A DNA stretch of 64,000 nt from Escherichia phage D5505. The stretch lies in the sequence record MK327929.1. One strand, 5' to 3'. The notes beneath the pieces were generated by a model. The model was given only the letters and a program-made list of their open reading frames with translations. It made no database searches and was not told where the DNA came from. Positions 46,672-47,426 of this stretch are shown one piece after another. Position 1 is the stretch's first letter, and the number at the start of each line of letters is the position of its first letter. The translations under genes and the position numbers were made by a program.

Positions 46672-47220
46672 ACCCAAGAAAACATCTACTGATCGTTGAT
46701 ACCACTGCAAATCCAAATAGCCATTACGCACATTAAACTGATAGAACATATGACAAGGCGGTAATGCCATCTGCTTGAGTTCAGCTGGATTCCATGCTGA
46801 AACAATTTGACGCCTATCATTTGGCAGTTTTTTAATACGATCAATAACTTCTATAATTTGGTCTACACCACCAAAATCACGCCACTGTTTTCCATAAATT
46901 GGACCAAGTTCACCGCTATGGTATCCTAAATCTTTTGCTTGATTTTCGTAATTTTCATCCCAAACTGTTTTGCCTTGGATTAACGAATCATGTTGAATTA
47001 ATCGCAAATCATTGACATTTGTGCTTCCCGATAAAAACCAAAGCAGCTCAGCAATGCAAGCTTTCCAGGCGAGCTTCTTAGTTGTTACTGCAGGAAAACC
47101 TTTAGTTAAATCCCAGCGTAATTTAGTACCGAACAAAGCAATTGTTCCTGTGCCTGTTCGGTCATCGGTTTCGTAGCCATTTTCCAGGATATCTTTAATT
47201 AAAAATTGGTATTGTTTCAT
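46672..47220 (-). CDS. td: thymidylate synthase, exon 1
   Basis: ATG at 47220 (MKQYQ...) through ...QWYQRSVDVFLG; contains PPCHMFYQF active site. Confidence 0.88.
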
Positions 47221-47426
47221 TAGTTCATCCAAGAATATGTAGAAGGATATTTGGCAAAGTTAGGCTTATATCCTAATTTAACCATTTGTTTTGCTTTGTG
47301 AGTAAATCCTAAAGAACGCTCACCTTTAAGATATTGTTTTGGTGTCATAGGCCCTTGATGCATCTGCCGACAAATAAAAAGGGCCATAGCATTAGGAACA
47401 TCCTTAACTTTTAATTTATTGCTCAT
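47220..47426 (-). CDS. hypothetical 68-aa protein inserted between frd and td
   Basis: ATG overlaps frd TGA stop (ATGA); TAA overlaps td ATG (TAATG). Confidence 0.55.

Follow-up and report, generated by a model that had tools for sequence, protein, structure and literature searches.

A small conserved gene between two stop/start overlaps at the frd-td junction of the T4-like phage D5505, probably a recent import

In phage T4, the genes for dihydrofolate reductase (frd) and thymidylate synthase (td) reportedly overlap in the tetranucleotide ATGA, and overlapping stop and start codons of this type are said to be translationally coupled. T-even genomes also contain many seg and mob endonuclease genes, which sit between conserved genes. 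In addition, small ORFs are reported to be shuffled within the hyperplastic regions of T4-type genomes by means of promoter/stem-loop cassettes (PeSLs). Here, we describe a 68-codon reading frame, ORF68, at the frd-td junction of Escherichia phage D5505. In our view, ORF68 is probably a true accessory gene that large virulent phages of enterobacteria can dispense with; it would form a promoter-less cassette within the frd-td operon and have been imported recently.

The window analyzed is the whole 64-kb stretch of D5505 DNA (64,000 nucleotides, MK327929.1), a T4-like (Tequatrovirus) segment whose genes lie on the minus strand. It contains gp32 (49771-50679), frd with its true start MIKLVF (47423-48004), ORF68 with 68 codons plus stop (47220-47426 by the ORF list and the sequence), td exon 1 (46672-47220) and, within the group I intron that follows this exon, I-TevI (45803-46540), all on the minus strand. 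An Rfam E-value search of positions 45000-48500 reported no group I intron family, although the td intron with I-TevI is present (45659-46671, minus strand); the miss is probably explained by the 738-nt endonuclease ORF, which splits the ribozyme core. On the coding strand, frd ends with ...GTA TAT AAA TGA and ORF68 begins inside this end with ATG AGC AAT AAA, the frd stop TGA and the ORF68 start ATG-A forming a 4-nt ATGA overlap (47423-47426). ORF68 ends with ...TGG ATG AAC TAA and is followed by td with ATG AAA CAA TAC, starting at 47220; here the last A of the TAA is common to both genes and a TAATG overlap results (47218-47222). These direct readings on the minus strand agree exactly with the 68-amino acid frame, the translation and the two overlaps given in a preliminary description of this DNA, which was made from the sequence alone and named no strand.

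That description had also stated a direct ATGA overlap of frd and td in T4 and had proposed that D5505 carries an insertion of about 200 bp that has taken over the coupling signal. The T4 record NC_000866 bears out this statement: frd lies at 145109-145690 and td ends at 145112, which corresponds to a 4-nt overlap with zero sequence between the genes. Relative to T4, the extra segment of D5505 is exactly 204 nt long (68 codons) and has a direct repeat, AATGA, at both sides; the ATGA at the frd stop serves as the ORF68 start and TAATG leads into td, as had been proposed. The 78 nt directly upstream of the ATGA are the same in both phages, and the Frd protein of D5505 is 98% identical to that of T4. 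ORF68 is absent from T4 in the alignment of the two junctions, and the proposed insertion thus withstood this comparison.

Several lines of evidence indicate that ORF68 is a real gene. Its product matches the HMM of the PHROG family phrog_9550 with E=3.7e-45, residues 1-68 aligning to profile positions 1-68 of 68. Matches were found by tblastn in 237 phage records. About 134 of these, from Tequatrovirus and Dhakavirus, reach an identity of at least 95%; for the Marfavirus phages of Klebsiella the value is about 80%, for Enterobacter phage CIP9 66%, for Serratia phage 4S 60% and for phAPEC8 and its relatives (Phapecoctavirus) about 42%. When 1.84 billion representative proteins were searched with a profile, only 10 genuine clusters were returned, all of 70-96 amino acids; an eleventh match, a eukaryote-like repeat protein, was not counted as a relative. 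In a search of 5.8 billion proteins, about 40 clusters of the family were recovered at 90% identity, with members of 66-108 amino acids. This protein-level conservation across phage genera is far more than chance would produce. Compared with the homologues of Marfa, CIP9 and 4S, dN/dS is 0.1-0.25 (pN/pS 0.24-0.33), and between D5505 and Marfa the amino acid identity of the ORF68 products (81%) lies close to that of Td (78%) and above that of Frd (47%). When the sequence is shuffled with its composition preserved, a 67-codon frame stays open in only 0.5% of cases. Comparative data therefore show that ORF68 is protein-coding and, as judged from its substitution pattern, under purifying selection. 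The conserved N-terminus MSNKLKV..VP....ICRQ.HQ identifies the start of the 68-codon frame as the right gene model. Two pattern sets, applied to 185,579 genomes of bacteria and archaea, detected no relatives of ORF68, and the 64-kb window contains no paralogue; as far as these searches reach, the family is phage-restricted.

The predicted product of ORF68 has a mass of 7.9 kDa, a pI of 10.1 and a net charge of +9.7. AlphaFold2 with an alignment of 31 sequences produced a model with a mean pLDDT of 83, in which helices at residues 13-24, 29-38 and 43-49 precede a conserved tail of extended structure, LGYKP.Y..Y.S.YSW; with only 13 close sequences the pLDDT was 56, which is too poor for use. The structure prediction called for in the preliminary description thus delivered a usable three-helix model, but this model matched no known fold: the best Foldseek hit in the PDB had E=4.1, and a BFVD structure search found only the protein's own orthologue. 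Scans of ORF68 and its relatives against Pfam, NCBIfam and PADLOC gave zero matches; with Pfam, 22 family members produced only noise, and PADLOC at E<=1 matched neither ORF68 nor the phAPEC8 homologue. A profile search of PDB sequences with ORF68 gave 0 matches at E<=10. Comparison by hhalign with I-TevI, SegG and MobE yielded probabilities of 0.1%, 0.2% and 1.9%, respectively, and in the fold search the predicted structure gave no match to a known nuclease or to the DNA-binding modules of such enzymes. Nucleic-acid binding, to which the preliminary description had also pointed, is a reasonable guess for this product, made from its charge alone.

ORF68 is one of several states in which the frd-td junction is found. 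It is present in 135 of 569 junction-matching records, i.e., in about 24% of Tequatrovirus records, and in a sample of 60 evenly spread rows the junction was direct (empty) in about 9%, occupied by a 115-amino acid ORF in 71% and by ORF68 in 23%. Three states thus exist in Tequatrovirus: an empty junction as in T4, the 115-amino acid ORF of phrog_1928 as in T2, T6 and RB32, and ORF68. Judged from these records, the direct overlap of T4 is a minority state. The comparison with T2, T6 and RB32, which had been recommended in the preliminary description, placed the 115-amino acid frame RB32ORF229c at this position in RB32 (L017 1590-2070), T6 (L022 973-1320) and T2 (L023 2743-3090). RB32ORF229c is bracketed by a 9-bp direct repeat, TAAATGAAA, as the RB32 record itself states, and merging the two copies would yield exactly the junction of T4. 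By its absence from T4, T2 and T6, ORF68 is apparently dispensable.

In Marfavirus Marfa, Kanagawavirus CIP9, Serratia phage 4S and Dhakavirus JS10, the homologue of ORF68 is always located directly upstream of td. Marfa, CIP9 and 4S have one or two phrog_1928 ORFs of 111-126 amino acids between frd and the homologue. Overlaps of the same kind recur: an ATGA overlap with the upstream gene, whichever gene this is, is also present in JS10, CIP9 and 4S, and a stop/start overlap with td (ACTAATG, or GTGA in CIP9) in Marfa, JS98-like phages, CIP9 and 4S. The homologues of Phapecoctavirus and of metagenomic contigs, in contrast, are distant from td and belong to arrays of small early genes. No relative of phrog_1928 accompanies them there, and an obligate pairing of ORF68 with phrog_1928 was rejected. 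A further difference from T4 lies upstream of frd, where D5505 has two small minus-strand ORFs of 81 (48004-48249) and 110 amino acids (48261-48593) between frd.1 and frd. The corresponding interval of T4 is a 71-nt gap only, without counterparts of the two ORFs. Their position and size resemble those of RB32ORF231c and RB51ORF237 in the T6 annotation, and the stop codon of the 81-amino acid ORF overlaps the frd start (TAATG).

The distribution of mismatches along the locus indicates that ORF68 entered D5505 recently. Compared with Dhakavirus-type sequences (JS10 and the IME281/IME341-like loci L004-L006), the nucleotide identity of ORF68 is 97-98%, whereas frd and td exon 1 reach about 78%. 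Mismatches between D5505 and JS10 are dense up to 3 nt before the ORF68 ATG, drop to 4 in the 207 nt of the gene and remain rare for about 55-60 nt into td. In this patch, which comprises ORF68 and the first ~60 nt of td (47160-47426, minus strand) and is JS10-like between T4-like flanks, the mismatch count is 6/267, whereas the flanks have 124/540 (Fisher p=5e-17). With T4 the pattern is reversed: no mismatch is found in the last 90 nt of frd (0/90), and the first 60 nt of td contain 9/60 mismatches, as against 21/540 in the other flanking sequence (p=0.0015). This mosaic marks ORF68 as an imported patch in a T4-like background and supports the proposed insertion. Together with the first ~60 nt of td, the gene would thus be a recent lateral import in D5505, and a transfer from Dhakavirus to Tequatrovirus is the simplest reading of the identity pattern. 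Not covered by the preliminary description were the existing annotations of the gene, the three-state polymorphism with T4 in the minority, and the adjacency of ORF68 and td, which is old in other T-even genera. ACG-C40, fPS-2 and pSs-1 have the same patch boundaries as D5505, a pattern that suggests a single founding event and later spread inside the genus.

The td intron is independent of ORF68: its frequency is similar in the phages with ORF68 (57 of ~135) and in Tequatrovirus overall; td exon 1 also lies outside the near-identical patch, and hitch-hiking of ORF68 with the intron and I-TevI was discarded as an explanation. Two further observations concern other lineages. Between Tequatrovirus and Marfavirus (47220-47426 against L002 3001-3207), pS is 0.52 for ORF68, based on a small sample of about 39 synonymous sites, and 0.74 and 0.85 for frd and td, respectively; the difference may point to constraint at the nucleotide level or to a younger exchange with Marfavirus as well. 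In Yersinia phage fPS-2, a ~270-nt stretch of td exon 1 (L024, nt ~180-450) is unlike both T4 and JS10, with up to 16 mismatches per 30 nt, and suggests a third donor lineage and additional mosaicism inside td.

A different history would result if ORF68 were ancestral at the junction and had been lost from T4 by deletion between short direct repeats, with no insertion in D5505. This would agree with the fact that four further T-even-type genera have their homologues directly upstream of td, with the rarity of the empty T4 allele and with the direct repeats of both cassettes (AATGA in D5505 and TAAATGAAA in RB32), the collapse of which gives the T4 junction. Nevertheless, a gene that is 98% nucleotide-identical to the Dhakavirus copies, next to frd and td sequences of ~78% identity, and that comes along with ~60 nt of a non-T4-like td start, has not resided in the Tequatrovirus lineage for long, and we regard loss from T4 as an unlikely, though not far-fetched, account of the D5505 junction. 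An old ORF68-td adjacency at the level of the family and a recent import in D5505 can both be true. The same adjacency could mean that the product of ORF68 serves thymidylate synthase or the dNTP-synthetase complex specifically, as a partner or regulator, and that the gene therefore stays at the td start. Such a role would fit two observations: in five T-even-type genera the gene is invariably next to td and overlaps it stop to start, irrespective of the upstream gene, and its conservation is about equal to that of Td. However, T-even gene order is generally frozen, which makes synteny weak evidence for a partnership, and Td is fully functional in the ~75% of Tequatroviruses, including T4, T2 and T6, in which ORF68 is missing. 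Homologues of Phapecoctavirus and of other contigs are also found among small early genes away from td. A Td-dedicated function seems improbable to us.

The basic composition of the product had led the preliminary description to consider a homing-endonuclease remnant. Moreover, seg and mob genes abound in T-even genomes, and two records of BASEL phages call the 115-amino acid cassette a 'putative homing endonuclease'. ORF68 could accordingly be a degenerate remnant, e.g., a DNA-binding domain, of a free-standing endonuclease at this junction. Yet neither cassette has a Pfam match, the hhalign probabilities of ORF68 remain below 2% (0.1-2% against I-TevI, SegG and MobE), and no nuclease fold was matched; in addition, purifying selection acts on ORF68, and its homologues, free-standing proteins of 66-108 amino acids, keep a length of ~70 amino acids and conserved N- and C-termini even in unrelated phages, as expected of an intact small protein. 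Because all sequence, profile and fold comparisons were negative, this idea was rejected; it is very improbable and largely refuted. According to the last alternative, ORF68 lies in a non-coding spacer or a regulatory insert and is open merely by chance. The frame is short, AT-rich (34% GC) and without a detectable domain, and it lacks an annotation in JS10 and is truncated in some other annotations. But a protein that is conserved down to ~30-40% identity with its length kept, a dN/dS well below 1, an open-frame probability of 0.5% and the lack of any Rfam family, promoter or terminator inside the frame speak against this reading, and the comparative data can be taken to have refuted it already, leaving it a negligible probability. 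A structured RNA or regulatory insert, considered as a separate candidate, was dismissed for lack of an Rfam family, promoter or terminator.

A probable route for the expression of ORF68 can also be given. Within or abutting 47220-47426 on the coding strand, no promoter-like (sigma-70-like) site and no terminator or stem-loop was found, and no Rfam family was detected within ORF68; the two stop/start overlaps, of the ATGA/TAATG type, thus lie on one strand with no promoter- or terminator-like site between them. As the gene has neither promoter nor terminator of its own, it is expected to be expressed from the frd-td transcript. Ribosomes on this polycistronic mRNA would gain access to ORF68 by termination-reinitiation at ATGA, and the UAAUG stop/start would then hand them to td. 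Conservation of both overlaps across genera points to a sequential coupling from frd through ORF68 to td, by which the expression of td would be preserved. The cassette itself would move by recombination between co-infecting T-even phages, and its left junction may have arisen at the ATGA microhomology. For the function of the +10-charged three-helix product, we can offer only a tentative suggestion, namely that its ligand is nucleic acid or else an acidic factor of the host or the phage and that it acts in the early or middle phase, for example, in host takeover or counter-defense. A more ambitious version, which we would call a long shot, combines a strongly basic effector of new fold (for counter-defense or host takeover), or a partner of Td or the dNTP complex, with a distinct mode of gene addition, in which a cassette enters at an overlapping stop/start via ATGA microhomology, the coupling is rebuilt on both sides and movement between genera occurs without a promoter.

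The ORF68 protein is not new to the databases. The exact sequence is deposited as QBO61241.1 (phage D5505) and QZI83564.1 (vB_EcoM-PM105), the commonest variant occurs on 332 contigs with the label hypothetical, and more than 100 T4-like phages already have the gene annotated as "hypothetical"; further members of phrog_9550 include YP_009850431.1 (Klebsiella phage Marfa) and UniRef A0A449C5N9. In the literature searched, neither a mention of phrog_9550 nor a description of the frd-td junction was found. Annotation is uneven: the gene is missing in JS10 (L020 2501-2707) and appears as a 42-amino acid product starting at M27 in ACG-C40 (L021 2579-2707) and IME339. A few records (PYPS2T, vB_EcoM_P8, Shinka) name it 'flagellar biosynthesis protein' or 'DUF4858', the latter label standing in the phage Shinka record; hmmscan against Pfam at E<=1 returned zero families and supported neither name. 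In the IMG/VR contig UViG_2938479101_000007 (L011 893-1100), a frameshift in an A-run (…CCAAAAAAAATATC…) cuts the product to 33 amino acids, which reflects either a sequencing error or a pseudogene.

The main value of these results is housekeeping. The textbook ATGA overlap of T4 frd and td turns out to be the minority form of a three-allele junction, and the full 68-codon reading, rather than a 42-codon or absent annotation, is the right gene model for a small basic protein that is strongly conserved and was recently exchanged between Dhakavirus and Tequatrovirus. This combination of conservation and recent exchange makes ORF68 a reasonable, non-urgent candidate for accessory-gene screens directed at counter-defense, host takeover or dNTP metabolism. 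Most interesting are the exact ATGA-to-ATGA integration, the sharp edges of the inter-genus identity patch and the fact that T4 is the exception at this junction. ORF68 also shows clearly, in a natural setting, how a gene can be inserted while a (putative) translational coupling is kept.

In comparison with the systems described so far, D5505 shares with T4 the ATGA tetranucleotide and the identical upstream frd sequence, which now serve ORF68, but it has two consecutive overlaps (ATGA, then TAATG to td) in place of one, with a coupling that is putative in D5505. Like the PeSL cassettes, ORF68 is a small novel ORF that is present or absent between conserved genes and traded between phage genera; unlike them, it has no early promoter or stem-loop at its flanks and is bordered by start/stop codon overlaps instead. 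The RB32ORF229c/phrog_1928 cassette uses the same insertion point, is likewise optional and is also flanked by a short direct repeat of junction sequence, but it encodes an unrelated 115-amino acid protein and is separated from its neighbors by spacers of 20 nt and 45 nt, without stop/start overlaps. Within phrog_9550, ORF68 of D5505 is an ordinary member, as evident from the full-length match, the identical deposited protein and the frd-td position in ~135 records. The gene is already catalogued. Its behavior is that of an optional cassette, located at an operon junction that varies between phages; this exemplifies the mosaicism usual in T-even phages and does not constitute a novel type of element.
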